Source: Clostridiales bacterium (lineage in GTDB: Bacteria; Bacillota; Clostridia; Lachnospirales; WRAX01). Taken from it: a stretch of 39,899 nucleotides of DNA. The notes beneath the pieces are model-generated. The model was not told the DNA's origin. It saw nothing but the letters and a program-made list of their open reading frames with translations, and searched no databases. Positions 8,681-39,890 of the stretch are shown in pieces; the first letter of the stretch is position 1; each line of letters starts with the position of its first letter. A program made the position numbers and the translations under genes. The DNA lies in the NCBI GenBank assembly GCA_031271375.1, contig JAISVU010000027.1, positions 1-39,899 of the forward strand, written 5' to 3'.

Positions 8681-8869
8681 TTATAATGAACCGATTTTAA
8701 AGCCTGCCGCCGCCGCTTTCACATCAGAAAAATAGATAACGACCGTCCTTACCTCGCGCCGATCTTGTTTATAAAGGCGCAGGTCATAATCCGCGAAGCG
8801 AAGTAGGCCGTCTCTATTATATACTGTTTGGAACTTAAAATGCAAAATCATTATATCATAATGAATCAC
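8681..8869 (-). pseudogene. Remnant of an Rpn-family (YhgA/PD-(D/E)XK) recombination-promoting nuclease / putative transposase
   Basis: The 62-aa ORF ILHFKFQTVYNRDGLLRFADYDLRLYKQDRREVRTVVIYF resembles the conserved h-h-H-h-E-F-Q-(S/T)...R...Y..R.Y......V.QVVIY core. It is far shorter than full-length family members (a few hundred aa). Confidence 0.35.
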
Positions 8870-8889
8870 GAGGTCAAGTGTCGTTTGAA

Positions 8890-9408: not shown

Positions 9409-9485
9409 AAATACCCTCCACTTGTTTTAGTAGAAGATATGATACAGGCCATCGGATTATGTTATTCCCATGAAAAATCCATTTC

Positions 9486-9866: not shown

Positions 9867-9890
9867 GTCGGTTCCTCCTACTCAATGTCG

Positions 9891-12461: not shown

Positions 12462-12565
12462 ACGATCCCCCCTGTTCTTGATATGTCCTATTATATCTGG
12501 ATTATGCCGTTGATTCAAGAATTTAGTTACCGCATAAATTGTTGTCTTCAATAATAGATATTAAC

Positions 12566-24044: not shown

Positions 24045-24091
24045 AAACACTGAGCTGAAATAAGCTCCGGGTTATGCTGCGAGGTGCTCCT

Positions 24092-24481
24092 ATGAAATAT
24101 GTTTATCCTGCAATTCTATATCAAGACGATGGAAAGGTGGGCGTCACGGTTCCCGATTTACCTGGCTGCCATACCTACGGCAACGATAAAGCCGATGCGA
24201 TTCTAATGGCTAAGGACGCGGTCGAAATGTGGCTATGGGACGCTGAGAACAACGGCGAACAAATACCATCCGCGTCAGAAACCCTGCCGTCTGTAACAGG
24301 CCAAACAATAACCCTGATCGTCGCTGACACAGACGAATACCGGCAGGCTAACGATACGAGAGCGATAAAGAAAACACTCTCGATTCCTTCATGGTTAAAT
24401 CAGAAAGCCGAAAAGGCAAATGCGCCGTTTTCCCAGATCCTCCAACAAGGGTTGAAGGAATATCTGAATATCACGGAGTAA
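24092..24481 (+). CDS. hicB: HicB-family antitoxin with C-terminal ribbon-helix-helix-type DNA-binding region
   Basis: MKYVYPAILYQDDGKVGVTVPDLPGCHTYGNDKADAILMAKDAVEMWL is a classic HicB N-domain. RBS GAGGTG. Confidence 0.8.
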   Translation: MKYVYPAILYQDDGKVGVTVPDLPGCHTYGNDKADAILMAKDAVEMWLWDAENNGEQIPSASETLPSVTGQTITLIVADTDEYRQANDTRAIKKTLSIPSWLNQKAEKANAPFSQILQQGLKEYLNITE

Positions 24482-25505: not shown

Positions 25506-25829
25506 CTACCAGACTATAAGCCTGATAATGTCCTCGGCTTGGTCGTATGAGTCTTCCTGCGCTTTGGAATACAGTTTCTCGCAGTTTAAAAGAGCCTCCC
25601 TAAAGCTGTCCAAAGAATCGTGGAGCTTCGTCGTTACGGAATCCTTCGAGTCGACGTCGTCCCACTTCCTGCCGAATGCCATCGCGTCTTCGCCCATCCA
25701 GCCGGACGCAAGCATCGATTTCACTTCCCCGTCCGCTTCCTTCATTTGCCTGTTTTGAAGCTCGCAGTATTGCTTTACCGCCGCCGCCGTTTCTTTCAAC
25801 GCCCGGCGGTCTACATTTATCATCGCCAT
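25506..25829 (-). CDS. WXG100-like small helical protein (candidate effector partner 3)
   Basis: 107 aa, helix-turn-helix layout with a central W-M-G (SGWMGEDAMAF). Last gene of the T7SS block. Confidence 0.65.
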   Translation of the reverse strand: MAMINVDRRALKETAAAVKQYCELQNRQMKEADGEVKSMLASGWMGEDAMAFGRKWDDVDSKDSVTTKLHDSLDSFREALLNCEKLYSKAQEDSYDQAEDIIRLIVW

Positions 25830-25839
25830 AAAATTAACC

Positions 25840-26139
25840 TCACTTAAAATTATCGGCTAGCTTTGTATTATGTTCCTCAACCGCGATATAACCCGGATTT
25901 ATCTGCTGTTCCAGCATGGCTATATAGTTTTTTATAACGCTATGGCGGGCTTTTCCTCCGCTTATTATCCGCCGTAACGTGCCAATCGCCGCGTCCCCCG
26001 CGCTGCTGTTCCAGCCGTCGTCAAGCCGCTTCGACGTTCTTTCCAGAGCCGACATCTCGTTGTCAATAGCGTTATTGACGCTCTTGAGCTTAGTTATCGT
26101 CACGCCGACCCTTGCGGTGTCAATCGACTGCTTTGCCAT
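25840..26139 (-). CDS. WXG100/SACOL2603-like small helical protein (candidate effector partner 2)
   Basis: 99 aa with a central DDGWNSSAGDAA turn. The C-terminal tail ...KLADNFK parallels the EsxA-like ...QLSDAFK. Confidence 0.6.
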   Translation of the reverse strand: MAKQSIDTARVGVTITKLKSVNNAIDNEMSALERTSKRLDDGWNSSAGDAAIGTLRRIISGGKARHSVIKNYIAMLEQQINPGYIAVEEHNTKLADNFK

Positions 26140-26162
26140 AAAAATCAGCTCCCATCATAGTC

Positions 26163-26405
26163 TTATGAAAATATGCCGCTGATAAAGTCGCCGACATCTT
26201 CAAAAAAGTCGCCAGCTTTCTTGAATATGCTTTCATCCATATTATTAAGATCGGTTCTTATACCCTTGTACTTAGATATAATCTCGCCTACGGCATCCGC
26301 GCAGACTTTCTCGCCTATTCCCGTAAAATCCCCGCGGATTCCCTGTTCAATCCTTTCAAGCTCTCTTATGATATCCCCAACCTTGCTCCGGCATTGTTCC
26401 AGCAT
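26163..26405 (-). CDS. Small helical protein (candidate effector partner 1)
   Basis: 80 aa, acidic, predicted all-helical. It lies 5 nt downstream of the hydrolase gene stop. Confidence 0.5.
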   Translation of the reverse strand: MLEQCRSKVGDIIRELERIEQGIRGDFTGIGEKVCADAVGEIISKYKGIRTDLNNMDESIFKKAGDFFEDVGDFISGIFS

Positions 26406-26410
26406 GGCAA

Positions 26411-28135
26411 TTAACCCCCCATCATGTTATGCGCCTTGTTTTCAGCGGCCTCAAGCCGATCTGCGGTGTCGTTCAAGTAGTTTCTAATCCTTCCCAGGGT
26501 GAGGCTGCTGCCAGTAAGTATGTTTGCCTTAGCCACAGAGAGCTGGTCTATAATCCTAACCTCGCTGTAAAGGCTGTTCATCATCCTGTCAAGCTCCTTA
26601 ATATCTGTATTTACCCTCCCGACGCTTACTGCGTAGTCCCTCAGCGCCAATGTGTCGGCTTTGATGACAAAATGATCCTTCACATAATCGTCGCCGTGGT
26701 TGAAAGCGTCTTTTATCCATTCGGCAACTTTCTGAAGACCTTCCTTGATTGCATGAAAGATGTCGACCACGATATCCCACACATCGCCGAGTACTCTAAA
26801 CACTGCTTCCAACAAGGCTTTCATTGCTTTCAAAAACTCTTCCACATGAGTCACAAAAAATACTATTTTCTTGATCGCCGACACGATTATTATTATTGGC
26901 TTTGCGATATATACGGCTGCTAAAACGGCTAACCCAAATGCCACAGTCACCCCAATTAAAATCCCTATCTCCGCTATAGAGGCGTCATTGAAAGTATATT
27001 CTATTATAGCTCGTATATCCTCGGGCACCGCCTCTGCGATTAAATCAAACGCGAGCTTGGGCCTTGTTACAAGAGTCCATAGAATGGCAAAAAAGCCCAT
27101 TTGCTGGAACCCCATAGCTTCATCACTGAACAGGAACGCATACCAATTATCGGCTTCAAGGCCGATTTTTTTCAGGTCGTCCCAGTCCTTTGAACCCATA
27201 ACAATCTCAAGGAACCCCATAATTGTCTTGGCAGTGTCGTCCCGGTACTTCTTAGGCAATTTGTTTATCATGCCTACTATTTCAACCATCATTAACGCCA
27301 CAGGGCCTTGTTCAACCCTCTTCCCTTTATTGTCGAAGCGCGAATACAGCCTGCCGGTATTAGGATCAATCATACAAGCCATATCATGCCAGCCGACAAA
27401 GCCGTCATTGCCTATGGTTTCAACATAATATGTATTCTTTTTTGCCGCGAATTCCCTTTGCCCCAGCATATTGACATAGTCGTTGTTACCGTTAATCGCG
27501 AGTATCTTCTCTCTGGCCGCGTTAAAATGCTCGATTCCGTAGCGCTTCAGAATATGATTGTACAGGTCGTCAGAATGATTGGGACCGTCAAGAGAAAGGC
27601 AAAGGTCAATCAAACTTGAGTATTCAGACATCATCGTGACGTATTCCGCCACGTTCCCCCCCTGGGAATGCCCGCCCACAATAAGCTCTCCGGTATATCC
27701 ATGTCCGGCGTATGCCTTGACGCACTCATCGAAGAAAGTAAGGCCGTCCGCCTGTATCTGGGAGCTAATTCCGTCGGGGGCCATCGCTCCTTCCAAGTCA
27801 ACGCCGAATGAGATGGGATTTTGTACCCAGCCGCCTTTGGGAGTTCCTCTGTATTGGACATATACCGCGTTATCGTCTTTGAAGCATACCGCGCTCATTG
27901 GCGAATCGAAGCCCGCGTCTATGCTTGTTCTCAGAATCTTCATTTTGCCTATGGACGGGTCTTGATCAATAGCCGTCCTTATCAAATCGATATACTGACG
28001 GTTATCAGACTTTGCATCAAGGTCTTCGAACACTTCCTGTAAAGGCGTGCCCTCTCTTATTGGCTCATTATTGTCCGCGATAAGATACGTCAAAAGCTCC
28101 AGCACCGTGGACTTATTAATCAGGGCTTCATTCAC
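26411..28135 (-). CDS. Mbeg1-like (DUF2974) alpha/beta-hydrolase (lipase-type) protein with a central hydrophobic hairpin and C-terminal helical domain; candidate T7SS toxin
   Basis: 574 aa. YRGTPKGGW... and the nucleophile elbow GGHSQGGNVAEY...SLDGPN match the Mbeg1/DUF2974 pattern. Residues about 386-429 are strongly hydrophobic (IAEIGILIGVTVAFGLAVLAAVYIAKPIIIIVSAIKKIVFFV). Residues about 430-574 are amphipathic helices. The GTG start overlaps the upstream stop (GTGA). Confidence 0.8.
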   Translation of the reverse strand: MNEALINKSTVLELLTYLIADNNEPIREGTPLQEVFEDLDAKSDNRQYIDLIRTAIDQDPSIGKMKILRTSIDAGFDSPMSAVCFKDDNAVYVQYRGTPKGGWVQNPISFGVDLEGAMAPDGISSQIQADGLTFFDECVKAYAGHGYTGELIVGGHSQGGNVAEYVTMMSEYSSLIDLCLSLDGPNHSDDLYNHILKRYGIEHFNAAREKILAINGNNDYVNMLGQREFAAKKNTYYVETIGNDGFVGWHDMACMIDPNTGRLYSRFDNKGKRVEQGPVALMMVEIVGMINKLPKKYRDDTAKTIMGFLEIVMGSKDWDDLKKIGLEADNWYAFLFSDEAMGFQQMGFFAILWTLVTRPKLAFDLIAEAVPEDIRAIIEYTFNDASIAEIGILIGVTVAFGLAVLAAVYIAKPIIIIVSAIKKIVFFVTHVEEFLKAMKALLEAVFRVLGDVWDIVVDIFHAIKEGLQKVAEWIKDAFNHGDDYVKDHFVIKADTLALRDYAVSVGRVNTDIKELDRMMNSLYSEVRIIDQLSVAKANILTGSSLTLGRIRNYLNDTADRLEAAENKAHNMMGG

Positions 28136-28755
28136 TCTATTGTTCTCCTCTCAAAGTACACGTCCTTATAACCTTCCAAGTATCTGCCTGAGTAACTATC
28201 GTTAGTTGAGAGCTTTATTATGCTTAGTGAGTAATGGAGGCCACGTTCTTTCAGTTCCTTTAGGAAATCAACCGCGGCGCTTTCGTCAATCGTATCGGCG
28301 GTGATGTCGGCGTGAATCAGATGGTTTTTATATATGATATATTCATCAAACCCCGTTGAAGGGGAAATCCCTTCTGTTGAAGAAGCTCTTGGAATACTAA
28401 CAGTCACTTCGGGATTGTCAAAGAACCTATTGGCTATTTCTGTGAGATATTCCACAGTTCGGGTTTCATAATAAAAATCCATGAAATTATCCTTATATGT
28501 CTCTTCATCTCCGCTGCTGTAAATAACCACCAATATCTCTTTTCCTGGAAGGCTTTTCGCGGAAACAAGTATGGGATGCTGATCTCTGGGAGTCCCGGTA
28601 GACCCCCAAGGCCCGATGTAACTAAACTCCTCGCCATAGCGTTTTTCCATGTATTCCAAAGCCCCGTCATACACATTTCCTTTTTTGAGCATACAGCCAT
28701 AACCCCCTAGTATCACCCCTGCCATTAAAAGCAGCGGAATTAAATATCTTCTCAT
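28132..28755 (-). CDS. Membrane-anchored/lipoprotein-like protein, candidate immunity protein
   Basis: 207 aa. N-terminal signal/anchor MRRYLIPLLLMAGVILGGYGC (non-canonical lipobox). Translationally coupled to the hydrolase gene. The immunity role is inferred from position only. Confidence 0.65.
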   Translation of the reverse strand: MRRYLIPLLLMAGVILGGYGCMLKKGNVYDGALEYMEKRYGEEFSYIGPWGSTGTPRDQHPILVSAKSLPGKEILVVIYSSGDEETYKDNFMDFYYETRTVEYLTEIANRFFDNPEVTVSIPRASSTEGISPSTGFDEYIIYKNHLIHADITADTIDESAAVDFLKELKERGLHYSLSIIKLSTNDSYSGRYLEGYKDVYFERRTIE

Positions 28756-28833
28756 ATCGGTTATCGTAACCTCCGCCGTTCCCGGGCATTGCGGGCGGGA
28801 TAATCCCGCCCCCTTAAACCCGTCATAGAGTTA

Positions 28834-29142
28834 CTACTTAAACGCATCCGAAAGCTGTACGTTCGCGTTCTCTGTCGCCGTGTAGTCCTCGGCCACGTTT
28901 CTCTGGAGGAACTTTACGTACTGGTCAAGAACGTCGTGAAACGTCTGGAAATACTTGCCGGCGAATTCGTTGTATGAATCGCGGGTTTGCTCTGCCGCCT
29001 GGCCCGTCCAGTAGGTCGACAGGCTGTCAACGGTCGCCTTGCTTTCGTTTAGCAGCTGCTGAAGCTGGTCGTTGTCGCCGCTGATTTGCGAAGCGATTGA
29101 CAGCACTTGTTCTGTATCAAGAGTGATTTGAGTGTTTGCCAT
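28834..29142 (-). CDS. esxA: WXG100 family protein, EsxA-like
   Basis: 102 aa with central YWTGQAA (W-x-G). The C-terminus EDYTATENANVQLSDAFK contains YxxxE and a tail resembling S. aureus EsxA ...QQLSNNF... Confidence 0.85.
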   Translation of the reverse strand: MANTQITLDTEQVLSIASQISGDNDQLQQLLNESKATVDSLSTYWTGQAAEQTRDSYNEFAGKYFQTFHDVLDQYVKFLQRNVAEDYTATENANVQLSDAFK

Positions 29143-29152
29143 ATGCTCCTCC

Positions 29153-29449
29153 TTAATTGCTCAGTTGTTTAACGCTGGCAATGTTATTGTCCCGGTTGGC
29201 TTCGTAGTTGGCCGCTTGCTGATCCAACGCCTTAGCGGCTATCTCAATATGTTCGGTCATGGCTTTCAAATCATCGCAGAATCCCGTGATCTGCTCCACG
29301 AAGGCAAGGTTGTCCGCTGCCCTCCAAGCGTCGCCCATTGTTTGGGCCGCGTTCATCAGGCGGTTATGGACCGTGTTGTACTCCGCCGCCAATTCAGTAA
29401 ACTTCTGAGACGCTTTGTGCAATTCCGGTGGGTCTACTACTAGCTTCAT
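29153..29449 (-). CDS. WXG100-like partner protein (W-R-A in place of W-x-G)
   Basis: 98 aa, helical hairpin, central GDAWRAADNLAF. RBS AAAGGAGGAAG. Confidence 0.7.
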   Translation of the reverse strand: MKLVVDPPELHKASQKFTELAAEYNTVHNRLMNAAQTMGDAWRAADNLAFVEQITGFCDDLKAMTEHIEIAAKALDQQAANYEANRDNNIASVKQLSN

Positions 29450-29497
29450 TTTCTTCCTCCTTTTTAGATATTATCTATAATGCGTATAGCATTATAT

Positions 29498-29749
29498 TCA
29501 AATTAAAAGCAGTTTAGACGAATTGCGGATGCCGGCGTCGAATACGTTGATATTCCGGTCGAAGGGCCTTCCTGAGGCGGCGTCAAGGAGCATTGTGTCC
29601 GGGGTTCCCTTAAAACTCCCCCCGCAAATTGATTCCGCCAGGCGGACAAGAAGCGCAGTCGTATCCGATATCAGCTTCCCCGCGGGAATAAAAGCATCGA
29701 TATGCCTGCCCGACGCCGGTATATATACGTCAACCAAGTATTTCGTCAT
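29498..29749 (-). CDS. esaB: YukD/EsaB ubiquitin-like T7SS protein
   Basis: 83 aa: MTKYLVDVYIPASGRHIDAFIPAGKLISD...DAGIRNSSKLLLI. Start 29749 with RBS GGGGAAG. The longer ORF to 29935 overlaps the essC 3' end. Confidence 0.8.
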   Translation of the reverse strand: MTKYLVDVYIPASGRHIDAFIPAGKLISDTTALLVRLAESICGGSFKGTPDTMLLDAASGRPFDRNINVFDAGIRNSSKLLLI

Positions 29750-29760
29750 TTTGACTTCCC

Positions 29761-32700
29761 CTAATCTATCAATTTCACCAGCGCCGCAGACCCTTCGGTT
29801 ATTACAAACCCGTACCCCGGCGAGGTCTCCGCCTGGTAATCGGCGGTGCGTTTGTTTACGGTGAGTCGGTACTGGTTGTTTATCCCGCTGCCGGCCCAGA
29901 TGCCAGACATCGGATTGAAATGCGTTCTGTACCATTCCTCGGCCGTGAACGGGTTTAACGCGTTCACGGCATCGCCCACAACGAAATGGATATTGTATTC
30001 CTTAACGCATTTATCCATAGCCGTTTGAAGCCGGTTAAACGGAGTGTCGTCGTCCGCTTCCTTCTTTTCGTCCTCGGGCGGCCTGTAGCGTTCCAGCGCT
30101 GTTTTTAAAGCCGCCATAGACTGGATCATAACGAAGACATCCTCAAACACCGGCGGCGCTTCCCCCGCGTTCATCTTGTCTTTATACCCGTTATTCCTGG
30201 CAAGGGCCAAGTCATATACCTCATGGGCGCTCTTTACCAATTCCTCCAGGCCGGAGCCTCCCTGCGGCGTTAACATGATGGTTTTGACATCGTAATTATC
30301 CGCAATGAACGCACTCAAAGAACCCATGAACCCCTGCCACTCCTGGCCGGACGAAAGCACAAGGTTTACCGGGTTTTTAGTGAAATCATAATAAGCGATG
30401 TCCAGCGTGGATTTCTCCATACCTACCGGGACTTTGGAAAAATCATCTTTAGTTATATAGTCCTTCAAGAACTGCCCGTCAACCTTTTCCCTGATTACCG
30501 GAACCTTGACAGCGGTTTCGTTTAACGCGCCGTACTTGCCCAAAACCTCTTTTGAGAATTTTTGGATAAAGGTATAGGAGGATTCGTCCGCGCTTAGGCA
30601 GGATGTCTGAAATTCCAACAGGCTGTCTTTATCCCTGCGGAATAATCCCCTGCCTTTAAACCCTTCGGGCTGCATTCCCCCGGTCTTGCCGACGACAGAT
30701 GAATAATCGTCCGGGTTATTGAGCCTAAGGCAGAAAAGCTGTTTAAAGTTCTGCAGCAAAGCGAACCTGACATTATTGACCCCTATACAGGTCAGGATAA
30801 AGAAAATGCCGTATTTCGTCCCTTCCCTTGTGAGATAGCTGAGTTCGGCGGCTTTTTCCTCATAAAGCTCGTTAAAGGCGGCGTAGTTGTTGATAATAAT
30901 AAGCATCGCGGGTTCGGGTTTCTCGGCGCTTTTGTTATACTCGGCAAGAGAGCCGCCGGCGCGGGAAAGGAGTTTCTTCCTTGTTTCCAGCTTACCCAAA
31001 GCCAGCTTGAACAGATTGCCGACCTTTTCCTTCTCATACGAAAGTATGACGTCGCCGACGTGTGGCGCCTCGGAGAAAGCCGTCAAAGTCTCGGCGTCAA
31101 AGTCCAGTATATAGATATTCACTTCCTTAGGGGAATGCTCTTTTATCAGCGAATAGCATAAAGCCTCGACAAACATTGCCTTGCCGCTGCCTGATGAACC
31201 ATATACGATTACGTTCCCTTCCTGGGTTATCGGTACGCGCAGGAGGCCCTGGGCCTGCCTTGTCGGGTCGTCATACTCTCCGGCCACGGGGTTAAGCACA
31301 AACGGCTTCCCCCTGAGCTCCCCGTATTTTTCCGTAATCTCATCCGAATAAATCAAATCGGGCAGCGGGTCAAGCCACATCTTCCAGCGGCTTATCCCTT
31401 CCTCCCTGCTGACCTTCTCTATGTATGAAGTCATTACGTCAAGCTGCTTTTTCGGATCCTTTATCATCGCGAACCTATCCGTATTGGCTTCGGCGATGAC
31501 CTTCCCGTTGGTATTGATCACGGTAAGGCTGTCGTCCCGGTCTTTAATGACCTTTGACGAGGGATAGTACGGCGCTCCGGCCCAGGCCGACTGCCCGATC
31601 TCGAAGAGTTCGTTATACCCAACCTGAAGATAGAACCGGCCCGGATTGACAAGGGCCGCCGCGTCGGGCCTCTCAAGCATCTCCATGCTGTCCCCGCTGT
31701 CCTGCACCTTTAAGCAAACCTTGAAGCGGCTGTTGCTGCGGACCTGATCGTCAACGACGCCGCCGGGCTTCTGGGTCGCCAGGATCAAATGAACGCCGAG
31801 GCTGCGCCCGACGCGGGAGGCGCTGGTCAGCTCGGTCATAAAATCGGGCTGTTCCTTCTTTAATTCGGCGAACTCGTCGGATATGATAAACAGATGGGGC
31901 AGCGGAACCTTGACCTTCCCGTCCCGGTAGAGCTTTTGGTATTTGTAGATGTCGATACTGCCGATACCGTGCTGCTGCGCGGTATCGCGGAATATCGTCT
32001 CCCTGCGGTGCAGCTCGCTCCGCATAGAGGCGAGGGAACGCTTTATCCCGTTCCCGTCAAGGTTTGTGATTACCCCGGCGGTGTGGGGTATGTTCTCAAA
32101 GGCCTTCGCCATGCCGCCGCCCTTATAGTCTATCAGGATAAAAGCCACTTCGCGGGGATGGAAGGATACGGCCAATGAAAGGATATATGCGGTTATAAAC
32201 TCGCTTTTCCCCGACCCGGTCATCCCGGCGACAAGGCCGTGGGGGCCGTGGGCCTTCTCATGGAGGTCAAGTTTGAACGGTTCCCCGTATTTGTCTACGC
32301 CCACAACAACGGCCAACGATTTTGCCGGATTGTTATTCGACCAGTTCTCCGGCAGGTTCAAATGCTCAATCATCCCTATCTCAAGCATTTCAAAGAAGGA
32401 GTATTTGGGCGGCAGAGCGAAGTTTGAACCGTTTATGTCAATAAATGTGTTGGCCAAAACCTTCGTAGCCCTGTCCATATCCAATGATTCAGGGTTGTCC
32501 GCGATGAAGGCTATGGACGGGTCGCTGACATCGCTTATATATGTAAGGCTTGATACAGAGCCGTCCCCCGGCCTTCCCCTAAGCTCCGCCACGGCGGAAC
32601 ATTCCTTCGGCAGGTCTTTAAGCCTTCCGAACAGCGAAAGGACTGAGAATTTCAAGTTTTCTTTGTGTTCGGCCACCCTGCGGACGCACTCGGCTTTGGA

Positions 32701-34404
32701 AGCCAAATCCTTGTCCAGGCAGATTATAACGTAATACGGCTTTTCGTCCTCCAGTTTGCTTTCGGTTAAATCCTTGCGGTCTTCGATAATCCGGTCAAGG
32801 GAAAAAGAGAGGGCCTTCGCCTCGTCGGAGTTGGTGGCGATATAGCGGACGGTCTTGTCGTCGCTCATCGTATGGGGAAGCCACCGGGCGAATGCGAATT
32901 CCTCTGAATCCTTTTCGTCGTAGATCATAACGAGCTTAACCTCGTCATAGCTGTGCAAAGCCACGATTTGGAGAATAAGGCTCTTCGCGTAAGCGAACAG
33001 TTCCCTCCGGTTGGGGGACAGCGAGTATATGCCGCTGATATACCGCTCGACAAGGGGAAGGCACACCGGCACGTCGCTCAAGATATGCTCCTCTTCACCA
33101 AGCGCGTACATTTCCTCGGTTAGATTATCCGGCTCTACCGTGAATTGCCGGTGCGGGTAGGTTATGTTCGCCTTGAGCGGCAGATCGCCGTAACCCAGCC
33201 TAAGGGAAAGGAAATCCTTATGCTTGGGAGTGCGTTCCCAGATGAGGGGCGTCGGAGCCAGTATCCTGTCCAGATAAGCAGCCGCGGCGACATCGTTGGC
33301 CCGCATTATCCGCTCCTGCTCCGCAGTTTCAATTTCAATAAGCCCGCGAACCTGTTCAAGATACTTATGGTACATTTCCTGCCGTTTAGCTTCTTTCCTC
33401 ACCCTTAGCCTGCGCTGAAACGACTTAGTGATGACCGGCCACATGACGGTTCCCAGCAGCATACTGAAACACATGACCACCGAAGGCAGCGCCTGGGTTA
33501 TGTCCCCCCGCTGCAACGCGCTGGACACCGCAAAAGTACCGCTGGCTATGGAAGCCATTCCCATCGTAAGGGACGGCCCGATGAGCATGATCATCGGCAC
33601 GTCGTCGCTGCCCTGCTTGGCGGTCGGGGGATCAAGTTTCAGCTCATACTCGTCAACCCCGTGCTTGAACCGGGGCGCCCGGTAGAAATAATCCTCCGAA
33701 AAGTCCAATTCCTCGTCATTGTCCGGCTCCGGGTCGGCGGTTGCGGATGGAGGCCGGTACTCGGCTAAATCCGCGCTCTGTATCCGCACATTGCCGTCGG
33801 GATTGTTGACGAAGATTAAGTCCCCCGCTACGATTATCTGCATTCCCAGAATATAGACGACATCGCCCGCGTGCAGGCGGCGCTGCTTAACGGCGACGCC
33901 ATTAACATACGTGCGGTTCCTGCTGTCCAAATCCCTCACGGCGGCCCCGTTATTGGACAGGGCCAGCTCGGCGTGGGCGGCTGAAACAAATTTGTTCCCG
34001 TAGCAAATATTGTTGGCGGTTTCCCGTCCGATGCTTAGAACCGTCTTCGCCGCTCTCAGCCTGTAAATACCGTATCTCAGGCGGTCGGCGCTGAGGGGCT
34101 CTGTATACAGGATGTATTTGACCTTCCTGTCCTTGCTCTGGACCCTGTAAAGCTCCATTGGGTTCAATACGGCGGAAAGGAGTTCGTTATTGTCTTTGTC
34201 GACAACGCTGAACCTGCGGTTGGATTTTACCCTCCATTCGGAAACCCCGCCGGATTCCAGCGACCTTGAGGCCTCCACCGCCACGATGTCCGCCCTGTTG
34301 CCCTGATCCCCGCCGTCCTTTCCGCGCAGCCAATAATGCCCGGCGTACCGCTCCGGCAGTGTGATGCTTGTGTAATCGTTTTCAGAAAAGAGGGTTAGCT
34401 TCAT
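29761..34404 (-). CDS. essC: EssC/YukB FtsK-SpoIIIE-family T7SS ATPase with N-terminal FHA domains
   Basis: 1547 aa. The FHA region has GR...SAAH...NRTYVNG. It has TM helices and Walker A sites GMTGSGKSE and GSSGSGKAM. The architecture is typical of T7SSb EssC. Confidence 0.95.
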   Translation of the reverse strand: MKLTLFSENDYTSITLPERYAGHYWLRGKDGGDQGNRADIVAVEASRSLESGGVSEWRVKSNRRFSVVDKDNNELLSAVLNPMELYRVQSKDRKVKYILYTEPLSADRLRYGIYRLRAAKTVLSIGRETANNICYGNKFVSAAHAELALSNNGAAVRDLDSRNRTYVNGVAVKQRRLHAGDVVYILGMQIIVAGDLIFVNNPDGNVRIQSADLAEYRPPSATADPEPDNDEELDFSEDYFYRAPRFKHGVDEYELKLDPPTAKQGSDDVPMIMLIGPSLTMGMASIASGTFAVSSALQRGDITQALPSVVMCFSMLLGTVMWPVITKSFQRRLRVRKEAKRQEMYHKYLEQVRGLIEIETAEQERIMRANDVAAAAYLDRILAPTPLIWERTPKHKDFLSLRLGYGDLPLKANITYPHRQFTVEPDNLTEEMYALGEEEHILSDVPVCLPLVERYISGIYSLSPNRRELFAYAKSLILQIVALHSYDEVKLVMIYDEKDSEEFAFARWLPHTMSDDKTVRYIATNSDEAKALSFSLDRIIEDRKDLTESKLEDEKPYYVIICLDKDLASKAECVRRVAEHKENLKFSVLSLFGRLKDLPKECSAVAELRGRPGDGSVSSLTYISDVSDPSIAFIADNPESLDMDRATKVLANTFIDINGSNFALPPKYSFFEMLEIGMIEHLNLPENWSNNNPAKSLAVVVGVDKYGEPFKLDLHEKAHGPHGLVAGMTGSGKSEFITAYILSLAVSFHPREVAFILIDYKGGGMAKAFENIPHTAGVITNLDGNGIKRSLASMRSELHRRETIFRDTAQQHGIGSIDIYKYQKLYRDGKVKVPLPHLFIISDEFAELKKEQPDFMTELTSASRVGRSLGVHLILATQKPGGVVDDQVRSNSRFKVCLKVQDSGDSMEMLERPDAAALVNPGRFYLQVGYNELFEIGQSAWAGAPYYPSSKVIKDRDDSLTVINTNGKVIAEANTDRFAMIKDPKKQLDVMTSYIEKVSREEGISRWKMWLDPLPDLIYSDEITEKYGELRGKPFVLNPVAGEYDDPTRQAQGLLRVPITQEGNVIVYGSSGSGKAMFVEALCYSLIKEHSPKEVNIYILDFDAETLTAFSEAPHVGDVILSYEKEKVGNLFKLALGKLETRKKLLSRAGGSLAEYNKSAEKPEPAMLIIINNYAAFNELYEEKAAELSYLTREGTKYGIFFILTCIGVNNVRFALLQNFKQLFCLRLNNPDDYSSVVGKTGGMQPEGFKGRGLFRRDKDSLLEFQTSCLSADESSYTFIQKFSKEVLGKYGALNETAVKVPVIREKVDGQFLKDYITKDDFSKVPVGMEKSTLDIAYYDFTKNPVNLVLSSGQEWQGFMGSLSAFIADNYDVKTIMLTPQGGSGLEELVKSAHEVYDLALARNNGYKDKMNAGEAPPVFEDVFVMIQSMAALKTALERYRPPEDEKKEADDDTPFNRLQTAMDKCVKEYNIHFVVGDAVNALNPFTAEEWYRTHFNPMSGIWAGSGINNQYRLTVNKRTADYQAETSPGYGFVITEGSAALVKLID

Positions 34405-34442
34405 ATTTGCCCCCGTTCTATTGCCAGTGTTCCGGCCATTGC

Positions 34443-35972
34443 CTACTTGAACAACAGCTCTGTAAGGCCGCTTTTATGTTCGCTCCCCGGACCGGGGACG
34501 TTGAGCAGGGTTATATTATCTATATGTAATGATTCTCTTCCGCATTTTATTACATCGCCGATTTTGACCGGGACGTTCTCCGTTACCGTAACCCCGTTCA
34601 GCCTGGTTTTATTTGTCTTGCTCAAGTGAATGATTACGACGCCGTCATCCCCGGCGGTGATTTTACACTGTTCCCTGGAAACCGTTTTATCCTCAAGCCG
34701 CAGGCCGCAGTGCTCCCCCCTGCCGATAAGCAGCTCGTCTTGAAATGACAGCGCCCATGTCTTTTTGGGGTCCTTCTGATTTGTCAGCTCAATCGAACAA
34801 CGGCTTGCAAACGGCCCTTTGCCGTATTCGGAATCGCCGTGCAAAAGTATTGTGTCATCGTCTTCATAATACTCCGGAGCGGCCTCAGCAGGCTCCCCGG
34901 CCTTCTTCCTTCGAAGGATTACAATAAAAAGAATGCCTGCGGCGGCTAAGACCAGCACAACCCCGGCGGCGATAAATATACCGCCTGGAATGCGTTCCTT
35001 AACAGGTTCGGGCTCGGGAATAACCTCTTCGTCAGCCGGTTCCGGCGCTGACGTGACAGGGGGTTGCGCGATAGGGCTGTCAACAGCCGGATACTTAAAG
35101 TCTGCGGTCAATTCAAGACTGCCGTCGGCAATATCGGTCTGCCTCACAGACCCGTCCATAAGGTTGGGTGGGGTAATGGCTTCGAGATAGGAATAACCGG
35201 CGACGGAAAGGGACGCCGCCAAGCCGCCCGGATCAGACGACGGGTCGAGGGTAAAATACCGGCCCCCGCTCAAACGCACTATTGAAGACAGCTCTTTGCT
35301 CTCGGGGCCGCCCTCGCTGACGCGCACCGCGTCGATCGGGTAGAACTTATCCTGCAGTTCGATCAGAAGCTCCTCTAATGTAATGCCTCTGGCGGTATCG
35401 TCTACCCCGTCCGTTATAACGACAGTCCGGTAAAAGACCGGCTTCCCGTCATGGGGTTCAAGGAGCGGGATCGTATCCTGTATCGCGTTGTAGACAATGC
35501 TCCAGTCCCCGTCAAACTCGACTTCGTCTATACCCTTCGCAATGTCGTAACGGTCTGATGAGAATTCCGTAAGGACGGTCAGCTCTTCCCCGAATATGGC
35601 AAGCCTGAACTCCTCGTTGGCCGCCTTGTTTTCGACCAGTTCATTAAGCGTTTCGATTACGACGCTTCTGGCGTCTCTGGGCATTGAGGTGGATATGTCA
35701 ACCAATAAGGTTGTTTTAATAAGGGCGTTTGGGCCGGAAAGGGAACCCGCAGCGGTTACCTCTGCGGGGATATTGGACACGGCAAGCCTAACGCTCTCGG
35801 CGTTCAACGGCCCGTCGGTAAAGACAGTCACAGCTCGTCCCGATATGTACATCTGGGAGATTTTCTGGTTTCCGCCGCCTACGGCGGACACGCTTAGGTA
35901 AGGCCCGTTAAACAGCGTAACGGATAGGAGTACGGCAATAAATACTGTAAACGCGGCCGGATACTTTTTCAT
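34443..35972 (-). CDS. Secreted vWA domain - TM helix - cytoplasmic FHA domain protein
   Basis: 509 aa. Signal peptide, MIDAS-type LLVDISTSM, ...VVITDGVDD, Pro/Glu-rich linker, TM IFIAAGVVLVLAAAGILFIVIL-RRKK. The C-terminal FHA has LLIGRGEHC...VSREQ...NKTRLNG. Confidence 0.85.
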   Translation of the reverse strand: MKKYPAAFTVFIAVLLSVTLFNGPYLSVSAVGGGNQKISQMYISGRAVTVFTDGPLNAESVRLAVSNIPAEVTAAGSLSGPNALIKTTLLVDISTSMPRDARSVVIETLNELVENKAANEEFRLAIFGEELTVLTEFSSDRYDIAKGIDEVEFDGDWSIVYNAIQDTIPLLEPHDGKPVFYRTVVITDGVDDTARGITLEELLIELQDKFYPIDAVRVSEGGPESKELSSIVRLSGGRYFTLDPSSDPGGLAASLSVAGYSYLEAITPPNLMDGSVRQTDIADGSLELTADFKYPAVDSPIAQPPVTSAPEPADEEVIPEPEPVKERIPGGIFIAAGVVLVLAAAGILFIVILRRKKAGEPAEAAPEYYEDDDTILLHGDSEYGKGPFASRCSIELTNQKDPKKTWALSFQDELLIGRGEHCGLRLEDKTVSREQCKITAGDDGVVIIHLSKTNKTRLNGVTVTENVPVKIGDVIKCGRESLHIDNITLLNVPGPGSEHKSGLTELLFK

Positions 35973-36008
35973 AGCACTCGTCCCTTAAAGCACAATCCAA
36001 TTTATGGT

Positions 36009-36037
36009 ATTATCCCACAAAAAACCGGTAATGTCAA
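36009..36037 (-). promoter_or_regulatory. Candidate internal promoter upstream of the vWA-FHA gene/essC
   Basis: On the minus strand: TTGACA, 17 nt, GATAAT. Confidence 0.4.
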
Positions 36038-36076
36038 TAGCTAATTCGCCCGGTCATTCGGAGGAATATCAAAGGA

Positions 36077-37774
36077 TCATGAATCGGGCACATATATCCA
36101 TTTAGTGTACTTCTGCACGCCATCCACGAAAACATACACCGTTTCTTCCGACCTGAGCAGCGCCATATCCACATAAACCGTATGCGGCAGCATATCTCTG
36201 CTTACTGTCTCCGAATAAATCGTCAGCCAAAAACCCGACGAATCCTTCCTTTGAATCGTGACCCATGCTTCGTCGGCCACGTCCGTGAACTCATTTGCCG
36301 TTATCGTAAACGCGTAGGCCGGATTAGAGGGAGGTGTAAAAGGGGGAGGTTCGCTTTCCGTTATTTCAGGCGTTTTGGCAGGCGTTCTGTAGGGCGGTTC
36401 AATGCCCCGACCATCGTCAGACCCGGCTTCATCGGGACGCCGTGACTGCTCCGGCGGCGGCGTTTCCGATGCGATATCTTCATAACCCGTTTCTTCTCCT
36501 TCTTCTCCGGTACCGCCGCCCGGTTCAGGGGTCATTGAATACCCTGTAAGGGCATTAGCCGATGGATCCGAAGGATTCGCGGTGAGGCCGGGCGTCGAAG
36601 GGACCGCAGGTTCGGAGGGCGGCGTTTCTTGAAGCGGGATTTCGGTTACAAGCCCCGCCGTTCCGTGAGCCGTCCTATCGTCGCGCTCAACAAAAAACCA
36701 CGGCAGAACAAACAAAGCGGCCGCAAGTAAAACCAATGCCCCGGCGACAACGATGATAAGCCGGTAATTTAAAGCGCTCTTATGTTTTTTAGGTTTAGGC
36801 GGCAAAGGCGGCGGAACGTCGCGGGACGGTTTTGGGGACGGGCTTGAGGCGCCGCTGTAAGAGCCCTCGGGCCCTTTGGATGAGCGCGGCTTTAAGACCC
36901 GCGCCTCTTTCTCTTCCCGGCTCAGTCCATCTAGACATTTCTCAAGCCCCGCTTTGAAGCTTTCCGCGTTCTTATAGCGGTCTTTCTTAGGGGCGCAGGC
37001 TTTCGACAGGCAATCCGCGAGCCTTTTGTTCCCGTGAATAGGGGGCGGGAACTCTTCCGTCCTGGACTTTCTTAGCAGCTTATACAGCACGATGCCCAGT
37101 GAATAGATATCAACTGTGTGGTCTCCCGGTTCCCTCGCGCTTATTTCCGGGGCCATGTATTCAAAAGTCCCCGCGACCGTCATAACCTGCGAGCCGCCGG
37201 ACAGATTCTTCGCGACGCCGAAATCCCCCAGCTTATACCCTCCCTCATCTGTGACGAAAAGGTTGGCTTCCTTAATGTCCCTGTGGACGACACCGTTTTT
37301 ATGGCACAGAATCAAAGCCTCACAGACGCTGATACCCAGAGACAGGATATCCCCGAGGCTCATCCCCTTTTCAAAAATAGCCGTCCTGAGGGGCTTTAGA
37401 TATTCCATCCTAATGAATATCTCACATCTGGACGGGTTATCGTACCGTTTTATTTCATGGTCGTAATAATTCACTATGTAGCGGCTGTCCTTCTTGCTAA
37501 GTTTGAAAAGGTTTGTTATTTCCTCCGTAGCCAGCTTGACCCGCTTTAAATAGCGCGAAAGGCTCGCGGCGCCGCCGTCGGTTACGCCGTCATAATCAAA
37601 TGATTCGCTTTCGCCTTCATCCCGGATTTCTATATGCTTGACAGCATAATTAATCCCCGTCTCCTCGTCCGCGGCCAGATAAACGCTTCCTGACGCGCCT
37701 CCGCCCAGGAACTTTATTAACTTGTGCCTTCCGGCATACCCGCCGGTTAAGTCGCGGCGTCCGCTTATATCCAT
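36077..37774 (-). CDS. Hanks-type Ser/Thr protein kinase - TM helix - Pro-rich linker - small extracellular beta domain
   Basis: 565 aa. G-loop LGGGASGSVY, AVKHI lysine, HRDIKEANL, DFG, YMAPE, TM LIIVVAGALVLLAAALFVLPWFFV. Confidence 0.9.
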   Translation of the reverse strand: MDISGRRDLTGGYAGRHKLIKFLGGGASGSVYLAADEETGINYAVKHIEIRDEGESESFDYDGVTDGGAASLSRYLKRVKLATEEITNLFKLSKKDSRYIVNYYDHEIKRYDNPSRCEIFIRMEYLKPLRTAIFEKGMSLGDILSLGISVCEALILCHKNGVVHRDIKEANLFVTDEGGYKLGDFGVAKNLSGGSQVMTVAGTFEYMAPEISAREPGDHTVDIYSLGIVLYKLLRKSRTEEFPPPIHGNKRLADCLSKACAPKKDRYKNAESFKAGLEKCLDGLSREEKEARVLKPRSSKGPEGSYSGASSPSPKPSRDVPPPLPPKPKKHKSALNYRLIIVVAGALVLLAAALFVLPWFFVERDDRTAHGTAGLVTEIPLQETPPSEPAVPSTPGLTANPSDPSANALTGYSMTPEPGGGTGEEGEETGYEDIASETPPPEQSRRPDEAGSDDGRGIEPPYRTPAKTPEITESEPPPFTPPSNPAYAFTITANEFTDVADEAWVTIQRKDSSGFWLTIYSETVSRDMLPHTVYVDMALLRSEETVYVFVDGVQKYTKWIYVPDS

Positions 37775-37817
37775 GTCGTTTTACTCCGCATCCGAACAAA
37801 GCCTATCACACATCATC

Positions 37818-37846
37818 ATAATATCACCTGGACATTTTAATGTCAA
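37818..37846 (-). promoter_or_regulatory. Near-consensus sigma-A promoter of the kinase/T7SS block
   Basis: On the minus strand: TTGACA (37846-37841), exactly 17 nt, TATTAT (37823-37818), about 45 nt upstream of the kinase ATG. Confidence 0.5.
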
Positions 37847-38194: not shown

Positions 38195-38305
38195 TTTCGC
38201 GAAGCCTTTTCCCCGAAAGGGGTTTGAAACGCCTCGTCGGGCTCTCCCGGCCCAGGCTTTGGTTGTCCATTTCGCGAAGCCTTTTCCCCGAAAGGGGTTT
38301 GAAAC
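38195..38305 (+). CRISPR. Mini CRISPR array: two identical 36-nt repeats and one 39-nt spacer
   Basis: Repeat TTTCGCGAAGCCTTTTCCCCGAAAGGGGTTTGAAAC at 38195-38230 and 38270-38305. An internal CCCC-GAAA-GGGG hairpin is followed by the 8-nt TTTGAAAC handle, so the crRNA would be on the + strand. Spacer GCCTCGTCGGGCTCTCCCGGCCCAGGCTTTGGTTGTCCA. cas6 is adjacent. Confidence 0.6.
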
Positions 38306-38422: not shown

Positions 38423-39139
38423 TTATTCCACAATCAATATCCCGCCCATCCCCAACGCCGTCTTTGCCCCAACCCCCGCATAGGCGGAGTAGCGAACAAG
38501 CAAGGCCAGACGGTCACGCTGTTCCTGATCTCCGCCGGGGCAGAGCGTTAGCTTGCCTTCAAAGCCAGGACGGGCGATACCAGGCTTGATTCTGTATTCC
38601 GCGGTACGCAGTTCATAGCGGGTATAGGTAACGAGGTCGCACAGCGTAAATACTTCTTCGTTGGAAATATCAATGCCCTCATACTTCCGCAGCTTTGCCG
38701 CGGCGGTATATAAAAGCGGCGGCAGCGAGTATAGATTAGAGGGACGCCGGTTATGGCGGTATGACGCCGGGGACGCTAGAATTATTCGGAATTCTTTAGG
38801 AGCCGGGCCGCGTAATTTCCCAATCGTAACCGCCGGTTTTTCAATGCGGTTCTCTATCATTATACCGTTTCTCAGCCACGATATTGCGATTGACCGCGCT
38901 GACTTCACCGCGTCAAAAAGCGGCGCGGCGTCCTCATGCAGCAAAGACAGCCGCAGCGCGATGTTGTTTTTCTGCACCCGGGCGAATAAGCTGAACGGCC
39001 GCAAATCGTCGGACATGTGCATCAGCTTAGAGTATTCCTCGCTGACCTGCCTCATCAGCCAGGCGTGAACCTTTACCGCCAGCTCACAGTTAAGCCGGGT
39101 CAGGTCGGGCTTTTCAAGGACGAAGTCAATTTGCCGCAT
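38423..39139 (-). CDS. cas6: CRISPR-associated endoribonuclease Cas6
   Basis: 238 aa. C-terminal glycine-rich loop YAGVGAKTALGMGG is typical of Cas6. It is adjacent to the repeat array. Confidence 0.75.
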   Translation of the reverse strand: MRQIDFVLEKPDLTRLNCELAVKVHAWLMRQVSEEYSKLMHMSDDLRPFSLFARVQKNNIALRLSLLHEDAAPLFDAVKSARSIAISWLRNGIMIENRIEKPAVTIGKLRGPAPKEFRIILASPASYRHNRRPSNLYSLPPLLYTAAAKLRKYEGIDISNEEVFTLCDLVTYTRYELRTAEYRIKPGIARPGFEGKLTLCPGGDQEQRDRLALLVRYSAYAGVGAKTALGMGGILIVE

Positions 39140-39152: not shown

Positions 39153-39890
39153 TCATGGTGTTAAATAAAGGAGTATGTATATTGATTCCCTTAGCTTTGT
39201 AATTTGTTTGCTTGTTGAAAAATAGAGCGAGTTTCTTTCAAATAATTGATTTGATAGATTGACATCAGGACAATATATTATACAGTGAGTTTCTTTTCTT
39301 TCACAATAATCCGATATTTCAGTGCACAATGCGTCGTTAGAACTTTTAGCTTTGTATATTACAACCGAAGCATCTTCCGTTTTTCTTTTTACATCAGTAA
39401 AATCAGTTATTTTATGTATTCCTGCGATATACCCACGATCATTTATTTCGTTTTTAAGAGATCGCAAATTTTCATCGTTATCCATATATAGGAATACGAT
39501 TCTTTTTTCATAAATCTTTTTATCGCGCAACTTTAATAGCTCTTGAAATTCTCTATCGCACTTATCTTCGATTGATTTATGCGTATGAAATCCAAAAAAC
39601 AAAAGGACAGTGCCAGTAGCCGCAATAATCACGCCTAAAATCCAAATCAAAGTTTGCATTTGTTCTTTATAAAAATCAACATCGGACTGTAAATATAGTA
39701 GAGAAGACTGCTGACTAGGTATATTTAAATTATCAATGCGGTTGTTCAACTTCATGTACCAACAAACACCAAAAGAAAGGATAATTATAGCCGTACAACT
39801 TAACAAATGGGAAAAGATGCCGATAAATAAAACATGGCATACAGTGAGGACTACAGAAAAAGAGCAATAGAATACCACCGCGAAGGTCAT
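39153..39890 (-). CDS. AT-rich gene for a 3-TM membrane protein with a cytoplasmic alpha/beta (flavodoxin/TIR/receiver-like) domain
   Basis: 245 aa. TM segments FAVVFYCSFSVVLTVCHVLFIGIF, LLSCTAIIILSFGVCWYM and LIWILGVIIAATGTVLLFFGF. The C-terminal region alternates strands and helices (IVFLYM.., ASVVIYK.., HCIIYCP..). There is a 13-nt gap to cas6. The start is near the window edge and could lie further upstream. Confidence 0.55.
   Translation of the reverse strand: MTFAVVFYCSFSVVLTVCHVLFIGIFSHLLSCTAIIILSFGVCWYMKLNNRIDNLNIPSQQSSLLYLQSDVDFYKEQMQTLIWILGVIIAATGTVLLFFGFHTHKSIEDKCDREFQELLKLRDKKIYEKRIVFLYMDNDENLRSLKNEINDRGYIAGIHKITDFTDVKRKTEDASVVIYKAKSSNDALCTEISDYCERKETHCIIYCPDVNLSNQLFERNSLYFSTSKQITKLRESIYILLYLTP

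Follow-up and report, generated by a model that had tools for sequence, protein, structure and literature searches.

Work on type VII secretion systems (T7SSs) has dealt almost wholly with T7SSa, the type of mycobacteria, and with T7SSb of staphylococci and Bacillus, to which a survey from 2024, drawn mainly from RefSeq isolates, added eight layouts. These layouts, T7SSc to T7SSj, were defined by EssC phylogeny together with gene neighbourhoods (Garrett, Higginson and Palmer, Microlife 2024; PMC11217815). They are without EssA, EssB and EsaA, and many encode a kinase that spans the membrane once (TsxD) together with a PPM phosphatase (TsxF) and a DUF6382-FHA protein (TsxJ); T7SSc has a cytoplasmic vWA protein, TscE (PMC11217815). 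Here we compare these systems with an eleven-gene locus at 25506-37774 on the minus strand of a 39,899-nt stretch of DNA from a Clostridiales bacterium (assembly GCA_031271375.1, contig JAISVU010000027.1), the whole of which is called the window below. The locus encodes an EssC ATPase and, directly upstream of it, a membrane protein that combines vWA and FHA domains.

A regulatory proposal already accompanies the published subtypes. The topology of the kinase TsxD is that of EssB, and regulation by phosphorylation was proposed, with the type VI secretion system (T6SS) cited as precedent (PMC11217815). The GR, SxxH and NG motifs are conserved in the EssC FHA domains of the kinase-containing subtypes d, e and j, while GR and SxxH are absent from TsbC (0% conserved) and TsfC (PMC11217815, Table S1). 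In T7SSb, EssC's FHA domains bind the pseudokinase EssB without recognition of phosphothreonine (PMC11217815). A 2026 preprint reported, by experiment, that a pathway of MoxR, vWA, kinase, phosphatase and FHA proteins controls Esx in Actinomycetales through threonine phosphorylation of the FHA protein (PMC13622651). The general idea of a phospho-regulated T7SS is therefore not new, having been proposed for T7SSc-j and demonstrated for the Esx pathway, and the original prediction erred in supposing that no such variant had been described: kinases, phosphatases, FHA proteins, phospho-regulation and the T6SS analogy all figure in the account of T7SSc-j (PMC11217815). Its reading of the locus as a phospho-regulated, minimal T7SS variant is supported in part, in that no Ess membrane partner was found in the window, kinase, PP2C and FHA genes recur in relatives and the EssC motifs are kept, but the idea itself had been published before. 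What remains new, as judged from sequence, is a component made of signal peptide, vWA domain, transmembrane (TM) helix and FHA domain, which lies outside the published component lists, together with the EssC clade that it accompanies. The supplements of the survey, which are partly bare accession lists, do not mention Acetatifactor, Lachnospiraceae, Oscillospiraceae, Ruminococcus or Desulfitobacterium, which does not prove the clade absent from those data. The vWA-TM-FHA protein, named at NCBI merely 'FHA domain-containing protein', could have been overlooked in the published neighbourhoods, rather than absent from them, given so bland a name.

We consider it rather probable that the block is a complete non-canonical T7SS locus of the T7SSd/e supergroup, that it represents a separate, large clade of Clostridia, and that it is switched by phosphothreonine in the manner proposed. 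The open reading frame (ORF) listing and profile searches recovered, intact and in place, all eleven minus-strand genes that had been predicted. The kinase gene leads. Behind it come the vWA-TM-FHA gene and essC, then genes for a YukD-like protein and for two WXG100 proteins, and after these one for a lipoprotein-like protein, one for an Mbeg1-like hydrolase and three for small helical proteins. From the kinase gene onward, the intergenic gaps are 104, 38, 11, 48, 10, 78, -4, 5, 23 and 10 nt, and a purine-rich, Shine-Dalgarno-like sequence stands before most of the eleven starts.

The vWA-TM-FHA protein and the linkage of its gene to essC

The second gene of the block (34443..35972, minus strand) encodes a protein of 509 aa with a signal peptide, a beta-sandwich/vWA region, a TM helix and an FHA domain. 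The FHA domain is matched by profile search (2.6e-11), and VWA_2 reaches 24.6 bits, less than the 27 that Pfam sets as its cut-off. When a profile made from the family was compared with PDB sequences, it detected FHA domains only, and the vWA assignment therefore needed an AlphaFold2 model and Foldseek. The model, built with 15 homologues, has a mean predicted local distance difference test score (pLDDT) of 77, with values above 90 over residues 84-293, and places in order the beta-sandwich and vWA domain, a disordered Pro-rich linker, the TM helix (333-355) followed by RRKK, and the FHA domain (391-490). In Foldseek, the N-terminal region found vWA domains with a probability of 1.0, archaeal ArnB ranking first. 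Because a signal peptide precedes the vWA domain and the TM helix comes after it, the vWA domain is predicted to lie outside the membrane and the FHA domain in the cytoplasm. The DxSxS motif (D92/S94/S96) of the metal ion-dependent adhesion site (MIDAS) is invariant across the family alignment, as are, in the FHA domain, the residues by which phosphothreonine is normally contacted (G417-R418, S432-R433, N454, T456 and N459). The protein also matches the cytoplasmic FHA-like family of YscD from type III secretion systems (T3SSs; Yop-YscD_cpl, 1.9e-9), and DUF6382 gave no match in it at E<=0.1.

FHA domains normally require phosphothreonine (pThr), and their ligands usually show a preference for a hydrophobic residue at pT+3. 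In the vWA-TM-FHA family, the cytoplasmic juxtamembrane linker (residues ~376-382) carries a T-E-F-[I/V/L/F] motif, with the threonine present in 13 of the 15 family sequences. Having a hydrophobic residue at pT+3, the motif fits the preference of FHA ligands and is a candidate phospho-acceptor for the family.

The family is large. A single-protein search of species genomes with the window protein gave no confirmed relative, and an alignment-based search then found them. Fifteen full-length relatives with 31-47% identity were returned by a word-indexed protein search, and an exhaustive profile search yielded 650 representatives (clusters at 50% identity) with E<=1e-30, on which the statement of family size rests; the best 150 of these are nearly all full length.

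The neighbouring gene (29761..34404, minus strand) encodes an FtsK-SpoIIIE ATPase of 1547 aa that is identified as EssC/TsxC by a TIGR03928 score of 934 bits vs a cut-off of 778.4. FtsK_SpoIIIE is matched over two stretches (1.3e-50), and the protein has an N-terminal FHA region (2.1e-13), two TM segments and a C-terminal sequence pattern of the TseC type. Its FHA region keeps the phosphothreonine motifs: GR at 126-127, SxxH at S141..H144 and NG at 168-169. The next gene (29498..29749, minus strand), whose start is an internal ATG of a 145-aa ORF, encodes an 83-aa protein, probably of ubiquitin fold, that resembles YukD/EsaB (TsxB). The window protein itself falls short of PF08817, with 18.2 bits where 27 are required. 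Of the 11 family members that were aligned, however, 9 do match this model (best 8.7e-10), and a profile of the family weakly matches ubiquitin-like domains and the Ubl domain of EccD1 (E 0.004-0.025). Two WXG100 proteins follow on the same strand, one of 98 aa (29153..29449; PF06013 at 31.3 bits vs a cut-off of 27.3) and one of 102 aa (28834..29142; PF06013 at 40.1 bits, TIGR03930 at 47.2 bits vs a cut-off of 44.85).

The prediction that no EssA, EssB or EsaA would be recognisable was borne out by profile hidden Markov model searches of the ~37 window proteins, in none of which YukC/EssB, EssA or YueB/EsaA gave a Pfam or NCBIfam match; for YukC, the thresholds were E<=0.1 for the eleven locus proteins and E<=0.001 for the other window proteins. 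EssA/YueC and EsaA/YueB were likewise without a match in the gene set of a related locus, L022, and window proteins outside the block gave no match to T7SS families.

In relatives, the vWA-TM-FHA gene is almost always found in an essC locus (19 loci from species genomes and several metagenome contigs). The synteny of the two genes is genuine, since they adjoin each other in four divergent EssC clades. The window EssC defines clade A, which comprises more than 120 clusters at 56-66% identity and includes assemblies of Desulfitobacterium hafniense, Oscillospiraceae, Ruminiclostridium and Eubacterium. Clade B, to which Acetatifactor muris DSM 23669 and Lachnospiraceae COE1 belong, and clade C (L001, L004) have EssC proteins ~30% identical to those of clade A and to each other, and those of a group of Lachnospiraceae loci, L068-L086, are ~37-38% identical to clade A. 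The consensus order in clade A, represented by L025 and L027, is vWA-TM-FHA, PP2C, EssC, YukD-like protein, two WXG100 proteins, lipoprotein-like protein, Mbeg1-like hydrolase, small helical genes and a TPR-tailed kinase. Among the 14 clade-A loci with upstream sequence, the vWA-TM-FHA gene stands directly before essC, or with only a PP2C gene between, in 12, and a PP2C gene lies between the two in about 10.

The locus censuses relied on phmmer (E<=1e-4) and a crude ORF caller that takes the longest frame, a procedure that missed, for instance, FHA domains which Pfam later confirmed, so that their counts are lower bounds. A kinase or PP2C gene was seen in at least 50, and a vWA-TM-FHA or DUF6382-FHA protein in at least 25, of the 71 related loci in which essC is full. 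The window departs from the clade-A consensus in having no PP2C gene and in having its kinase at the head, without a TPR tail; in many clade relatives the kinase is a different one and sits at the far end of the locus, several times with a TPR tail. Of the two genes whose synteny with essC in relatives was in question, the vWA-FHA gene thus shows it, whereas the kinase recurs in the loci but mostly not at this position. The apparent core of the clade is a vWA-TM-FHA protein, usually a PP2C, an EssC with a phosphothreonine-competent FHA region, a YukD-like protein, two WXG100 proteins and a membrane kinase somewhere in the locus.

Some relatives show further variation. A basal clade-A locus, L043, encodes directly before essC an FHA protein of 363 aa (8578-9669) in which a vWA domain could not be detected. 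In the clade-B loci L022 (14278-19094), L023 and L024, the vWA-TM-FHA and TPR-kinase genes are followed by genes for an LRR/TPR protein and for one of 1305 aa with a strong vWA domain, which recalls vWA-based conflict-sensing modules.

The kinase, promoter-like sites and downstream genes

The gene at the head of the block (36077..37774, minus strand) encodes a single-pass membrane Ser/Thr kinase of the Hanks type, 565 aa long (Pkinase 1.6e-36). The catalytic motifs are all present (GxGxxG 24-29, AVK46, HRD164-166, N171, DFG184-186 and APE208-210). A cytoplasmic kinase domain (aa 20-292) is followed by one strong hydrophobic segment, the TM helix at about aa 338-360, and by an ectodomain of ~200 aa that is Pro-rich and whose last ~90 aa have no detectable family; a profile search found no TPR match. 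The possibility that the protein is a divergent EssB was considered and rejected, because it has no YukC match, its catalytic motifs are intact and PknB and PAK kinases head its matches among PDB sequences, with EssB/YukC absent among the best 60. The topology that the kinase shares with EssB is, by analogy, a valid functional parallel. The nearest kinase homologues inspected all lie in T7SS loci, those of L032 and L033 at 41% identity and those of the clade-A loci L036 and L102 at 34-35%, and in L102 the kinase is likewise at the locus head. When the kinase domain alone is compared, the L032 and L033 homologues reach 42-46%. That the kinase was an ancestral partner of the system is uncertain. 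The regulatory block of L102 (304-6705) has its own order: a kinase with a Big_2 ectodomain, an RCC1-repeat/SLH surface protein, vWA-TM-FHA, PP2C and EssC. The beta-propeller surface protein in this block recalls the EsrA sensors of the Esr preprint (PMC13622651).

The block had been predicted to follow one near-consensus promoter. The site is indeed there: P1, upstream of the kinase gene at 37818..37846 on the minus strand, reads TTGACA-17-TATTAT with a TG extended -10 (11/12, a consensus match only). A second site of equal quality lies inside the block, however, and one operon is unproven. This site, P2 (36009..36037, minus strand; TTGACA-17-GATAAT with TG, 11/12, the same score as P1), falls in the 104 nt that separate the vWA-FHA gene from the kinase gene, where no convincing terminator was found. 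Consensus matches alone do not establish a single operon, because the region contains 18 promoter-like sites against 12.3 +/- 3.8 in shuffles, a modest excess. Transcription of all eleven genes from P1 is possible, and P2 raises the possibility that the genes from vWA-FHA onward are transcribed independently of the kinase. A third promoter-like site (28421-28394, minus strand; TTGACA-16-TAGTAT with TG) lies inside the lipoprotein-like gene, upstream of the hydrolase gene.

The last five genes, all on the minus strand, look like an effector module. The lipoprotein-like or membrane-anchored protein (28132..28755, 207 aa) has a hydrophobic N-terminus ending in ...GGYGC and no family match in profile searches; it is a candidate immunity protein, and a homologue of its gene lies directly upstream of the Mbeg1-like gene in relatives. 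The Mbeg1-like (DUF2974) alpha/beta-hydrolase (26411..28135, 574 aa; PF11187 at 29.8 bits vs a cut-off of 21.1) has its hydrolase domain (GHS157QGGN) at the N-terminus, a hydrophobic stretch of ~45 aa (384-429) in the middle and a helical region at the C-terminus. The protein has no match to PDB sequences and no LXG match, and a single-sequence AlphaFold2 model was unusable (pLDDT 44.8). Twenty homologues from T7SS loci were compared (the window, L025, L027, L032-L037, L041, L043, L045, L051, L052, L055, L061, L062, L064, L083 and L101). In these, conservation is 90% or more for GHSxGGN, D183, D219 and H250, and all 20 have the mid-protein hydrophobic stretch of ~40-45 aa, long enough for a TM hairpin, ahead of a helical C-terminal region. 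The three small proteins downstream are candidate targeting partners: one of 80 aa (26163..26405) with no family match, whose position is conserved in L006; one of 99 aa (25840..26139), WXG100-like and possibly akin to Lap/Tla proteins (ESAT6_2 2.6e-6 and WXG100 0.024, both below cut-off), which is found downstream of the hydrolase gene in relatives as well; and one of 107 aa (25506..25829), also WXG100-like (3.7e-4, 21.2 bits, below cut-off) and conserved in relatives at E ~1e-30.

The model for such a module is TslA of S. aureus, a phospholipase effector of reverse arrangement, whose lipase domain is N-terminal and whose LXG-like helical domain is C-terminal, with a lipoprotein immunity protein, TilA, and the small helical partners TlaA1 and TlaA2, to which the C-terminal domain binds (PMC10730906). 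The five genes resemble it in an N-terminal lipase-type hydrolase with a helical C-terminus and in the adjacent lipoprotein-like and small helical WXG-like genes, and by this analogy the hydrolase is a candidate reverse-arrangement lipase effector. They differ in the mid-protein hydrophobic stretch of the hydrolase family and in its near-universal presence in clade A, which is odd for a variable effector. In the 2024 survey, variant essC genes often have DUF2974/Mbeg1-like genes near them (PMC11217815). With its occurrence in nearly every clade-A locus and its hydrophobic hairpin, the hydrolase may be a conserved membrane component instead of a variable toxin.

Unrelated genes bound the block on both sides, as had been predicted. 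One flank encodes AsnA and a HicB-like protein, and the other has two CRISPR repeats and a gene for a Cas6-like protein. A search with AsnA found matches in diverse Clostridia, at no more than 57-66% identity. The HicB-like antitoxin gene (24074-24481, plus strand) lies directly upstream of asnA, with no obvious HicA ORF noted beside it. The CRISPR array (38195-38305) consists of just two identical 36-nt repeats at a spacing of 75, and the Cas6-like gene beside it (38423-39139, minus strand; PF10040 at 30.9 bits) is accompanied by no other cas genes before the window end. Beyond cas6, a 245-aa predicted membrane protein with a weak DUF3185 match is encoded at 39153-39890 (minus strand).

A proposed phosphothreonine switch and its rivals

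If the locus is switched by phosphothreonine, the kinase would phosphorylate threonines on the cytoplasmic linkers of the membrane partners, and both EssC and the vWA-TM-FHA protein would dock on these phosphothreonines through their FHA domains, so that the EssC ATPase is assembled or activated. The MIDAS domain outside the membrane and the kinase ectodomain may supply inputs from the exterior or the envelope, or may anchor the complex in the envelope, and in relatives the PP2C would reset the switch. A bolder version, which we put forward tentatively and think doubtful on present evidence, is that one or more unnamed T7SS subtypes, widespread in gut and anaerobic Clostridia and covering at least four EssC clades, are defined by the vWA-TM-FHA protein as their core membrane subunit and that it acts as an outside-in transducer: MIDAS-dependent contact with a ligand or the envelope would be passed through the TM helix to an FHA domain that reads phosphothreonine, and this domain would gate the ATPase together with the EssC FHA region and the kinase and PP2C.

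Several observations weigh against a phosphothreonine switch, or against its operation in the window as drawn. P2 gives the vWA-FHA gene a promoter-like site of its own, and with an equal-scoring site before that gene a single operon from P1 is unproven. No close orthologue of the window kinase was found, the best match (46% identity) covering the kinase domain only, and the TPR-kinases of L025 and L027 are no orthologues of it (28% identity). The window has no PP2C gene, its vWA-FHA/essC gap being just 38 nt, whereas most clade relatives have one. At the linker position where the family has T-E-F, the window protein has S-E-Y-G, and the site may be unusable because a serine stands there while an FHA domain normally needs phosphothreonine. 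With this linker and without a PP2C, the switch in the window may be wired differently or weakened. In a basal clade-A locus, L041, no FHA, PP2C or kinase gene was seen within 10 kb. Finally, the FHA domain of YscD in T3SSs acts without phosphorylation, as do those of EssC in T7SSb, and the presence of an FHA domain alone is thus no proof of a phospho-switch.

This last point underlies an alternative that we regard as unlikely: the vWA-TM-FHA protein may be a phosphorylation-independent structural subunit that takes over the function of EssB/EsaA in bridging membrane and envelope, with its FHA domain a plain EssC-binding module and the kinase and PP2C accessory or unrelated. Such an arrangement would have a precedent in the binding of EssB by the FHA domains of T7SSb EssC (PMC11217815). 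The match to Yop-YscD_cpl also agrees with it, as do three loci (L002, L003 and L007) in which the vWA-FHA gene stands directly before essC with neither a PP2C nor a kinase gene in view, and the serine that replaces the conserved linker threonine in the window. A plain binding module would not, however, lead one to expect phosphothreonine-contacting residues that are invariant in the vWA-TM-FHA family and kept in clade-A EssC, where T7SSb has GR at 0%, and PP2C or kinase genes accompany most loci.

Less probable again is a reading in which the kinase is a mere neighbour, for instance a Ser/Thr kinase for envelope sensing in general that is driven by a promoter of its own, and the secretion operon starts at the vWA-FHA gene. 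P2, which equals P1 in score and sits in the longest gap of the block, is what one would expect of this arrangement, and the kinase has no close orthologue, has an ectodomain that matches nothing and has no counterpart at the head position in most clade relatives. Its closest and next-ranked homologues nevertheless lie in T7SS loci, including the clade-A loci L036 and L102, in the latter at the head; the kinase and vWA-FHA genes are not separated by a convincing terminator; and a kinase upstream of essC is common in related loci (L046, L048, L097 and L100). That the window holds a decaying or trans-dependent copy, either non-functional or reliant on a housekeeping PP2C or on canonical Ess proteins encoded elsewhere, seems very improbable. 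The missing PP2C, present in ~10 of 14 clade-A loci, and the deviant linker motif could be taken as signs of decay, yet the eleven ORFs are intact and closely spaced, with a Shine-Dalgarno-like sequence before most starts, the catalytic and binding motifs are preserved, and L002, L003 and L007 are likewise without a PP2C.

The reading that we prefer, a complete T7SS locus under a phosphothreonine switch, would have consequences beyond the window. The locus stands for a large Clostridia clade known mostly from metagenome assemblies, with a membrane partner unlike every component listed so far. Its domain logic appears unusually explicit, with a kinase, usually a phosphatase, and two FHA domains that look phosphothreonine-competent, one of them on the motor. 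If the reading is correct, the clade offers a tractable test of post-translational switching of type VII secretion by threonine phosphorylation and of what serves as membrane scaffold in place of EssA, EssB and EsaA. Carriers are available in culture, namely Desulfitobacterium hafniense in clade A and, with sister layouts, Acetatifactor muris DSM 23669 and Lachnospiraceae COE1. Such a switch would also bear on interbacterial competition among the abundant Oscillospiraceae and Lachnospiraceae of the gut.

Comparison with known systems

Outside type VII secretion, the combination of domains recalls the T6SS switches of P. aeruginosa (PpkA/PppA/Fha1) and A. tumefaciens (TssL-Fha), with which it shares a membrane Hanks kinase, an FHA protein, a vWA domain outside the membrane and, in relatives, a PP2C. 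In PpkA, the vWA domain is the periplasmic domain of the kinase; here it is fused to the FHA protein, and the ATPase itself has an FHA region. The two apparatuses are not homologous, so that the parallel can be one of function only. No T6SS families were found in the window; TIGR03354 (TagH) is matched through an FHA domain alone, at 23.7 bits vs a cut-off of 120. The archaeal pair ArnA (FHA) and ArnB (vWA) offers another likeness, ArnB being the best structural match of the window vWA region. Both Arn proteins are cytoplasmic, however, and regulate the archaellum, whereas here the vWA and FHA domains are part of one polypeptide and are predicted to lie on opposite sides of the membrane. The Esr pathway likewise ties vWA, Ser/Thr kinase, phosphatase and FHA modules to a type VII system, but it works with a MoxR ATPase, with beta-propeller sensors and with a vWA protein that stands apart, and the window locus encodes none of these (PMC13622651).

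Among the described T7SSs, T7SSb shares with the locus an EssC above the cut-off of the Firmicutes EssC model, WXG100 proteins, a YukD/EsaB-like protein and, in the pseudokinase EssB, the topology of the kinase. It differs in having EssA, EssB and EsaA, to which the window gave no match, and the window has intact kinase motifs and an EssC FHA region that keeps the phosphothreonine motifs. T7SSc is set apart by an EssC without FHA domains and by a cytoplasmic vWA protein, whereas the window EssC has an FHA region and its vWA domain is modelled as extracytoplasmic. The T7SSj and T7SSf systems of Clostridium are closer in several respects: clostridial hosts, an EssC with FHA domains, YukD-like and WXG100 proteins, a PPM phosphatase and a membrane-anchored FHA protein, to which T7SSj adds a TPR-tailed kinase (TsjD) like those of the clade-A relatives L025 and L027. 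TsxJ, unlike the window protein, consists of DUF6382 and two TM helices with both domains in the cytoplasm. The reference loci for this comparison were retrieved with the published TsfJ and TsjJ FHA sequences, and their subtype labels are our own inference. One of them, L030 (Clostridium akagii), matches the published C-terminus of TsjC and DUF6382, the latter in its TsxJ-type protein, and its EssC is 30-31% identical to clade A. Membership in T7SSj, which the TPR-kinases of relatives had suggested, was rejected on this identity and on the lack of DUF6382 in the window. T7SSf differs in that TsfC is without GR and SxxH, and its ATPase TsfV is not present here.

The closest likeness is to T7SSe and its actinobacterial sibling T7SSd, in which EssC has the GR, SxxH and NG motifs, two WXG100 proteins, a YukD-like protein, a single-pass kinase and an FHA component are found, and EssA, EssB and EsaA are absent (PMC11217815). 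They also share a PPM/PP2C phosphatase with the clade relatives, the window itself being without an equivalent of TseF. T7SSe differs in its cytoplasmic DUF6382-FHA protein, TseJ, where the locus has an FHA protein with a predicted extracytoplasmic vWA domain, and neither the large Ig-like TseI nor the small TM proteins TseH and TseK are found among the eleven genes or their flanks. Two reference loci, L029 (C. hydrogenum) and L059 (Neobacillus kokaensis), encode DUF6382-FHA proteins and EssC proteins with TseC-like C-termini, that of L029 having no match to the published C-termini of TsjC or TsfC; L029 carries two DUF6382-FHA genes in one T7SS locus (8906-10354 and 11411-12736). The EssC proteins of these loci are the nearest outgroups of clade A (L059 41-43% identity, L029 42-45%). 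In a distance-based (neighbour-joining) tree of 92 EssC sequences, which was made without the published TsxC accession sets, clade A is monophyletic and sister to a group of T7SSe-like sequences and Coriobacteriia (T7SSd-like L065/L071). The T7SSe-like L059 and the T7SSd-like L065 are 46% identical to each other and either is 38-43% identical to clade A, so that clade-A EssC is at least as far from T7SSe-like EssC (41-43%) as the latter is from T7SSd-like EssC. By EssC phylogeny and component set, and with the subtype labels of the reference loci taken as assigned here, clade A looks like a further subtype within the T7SSd/e supergroup.

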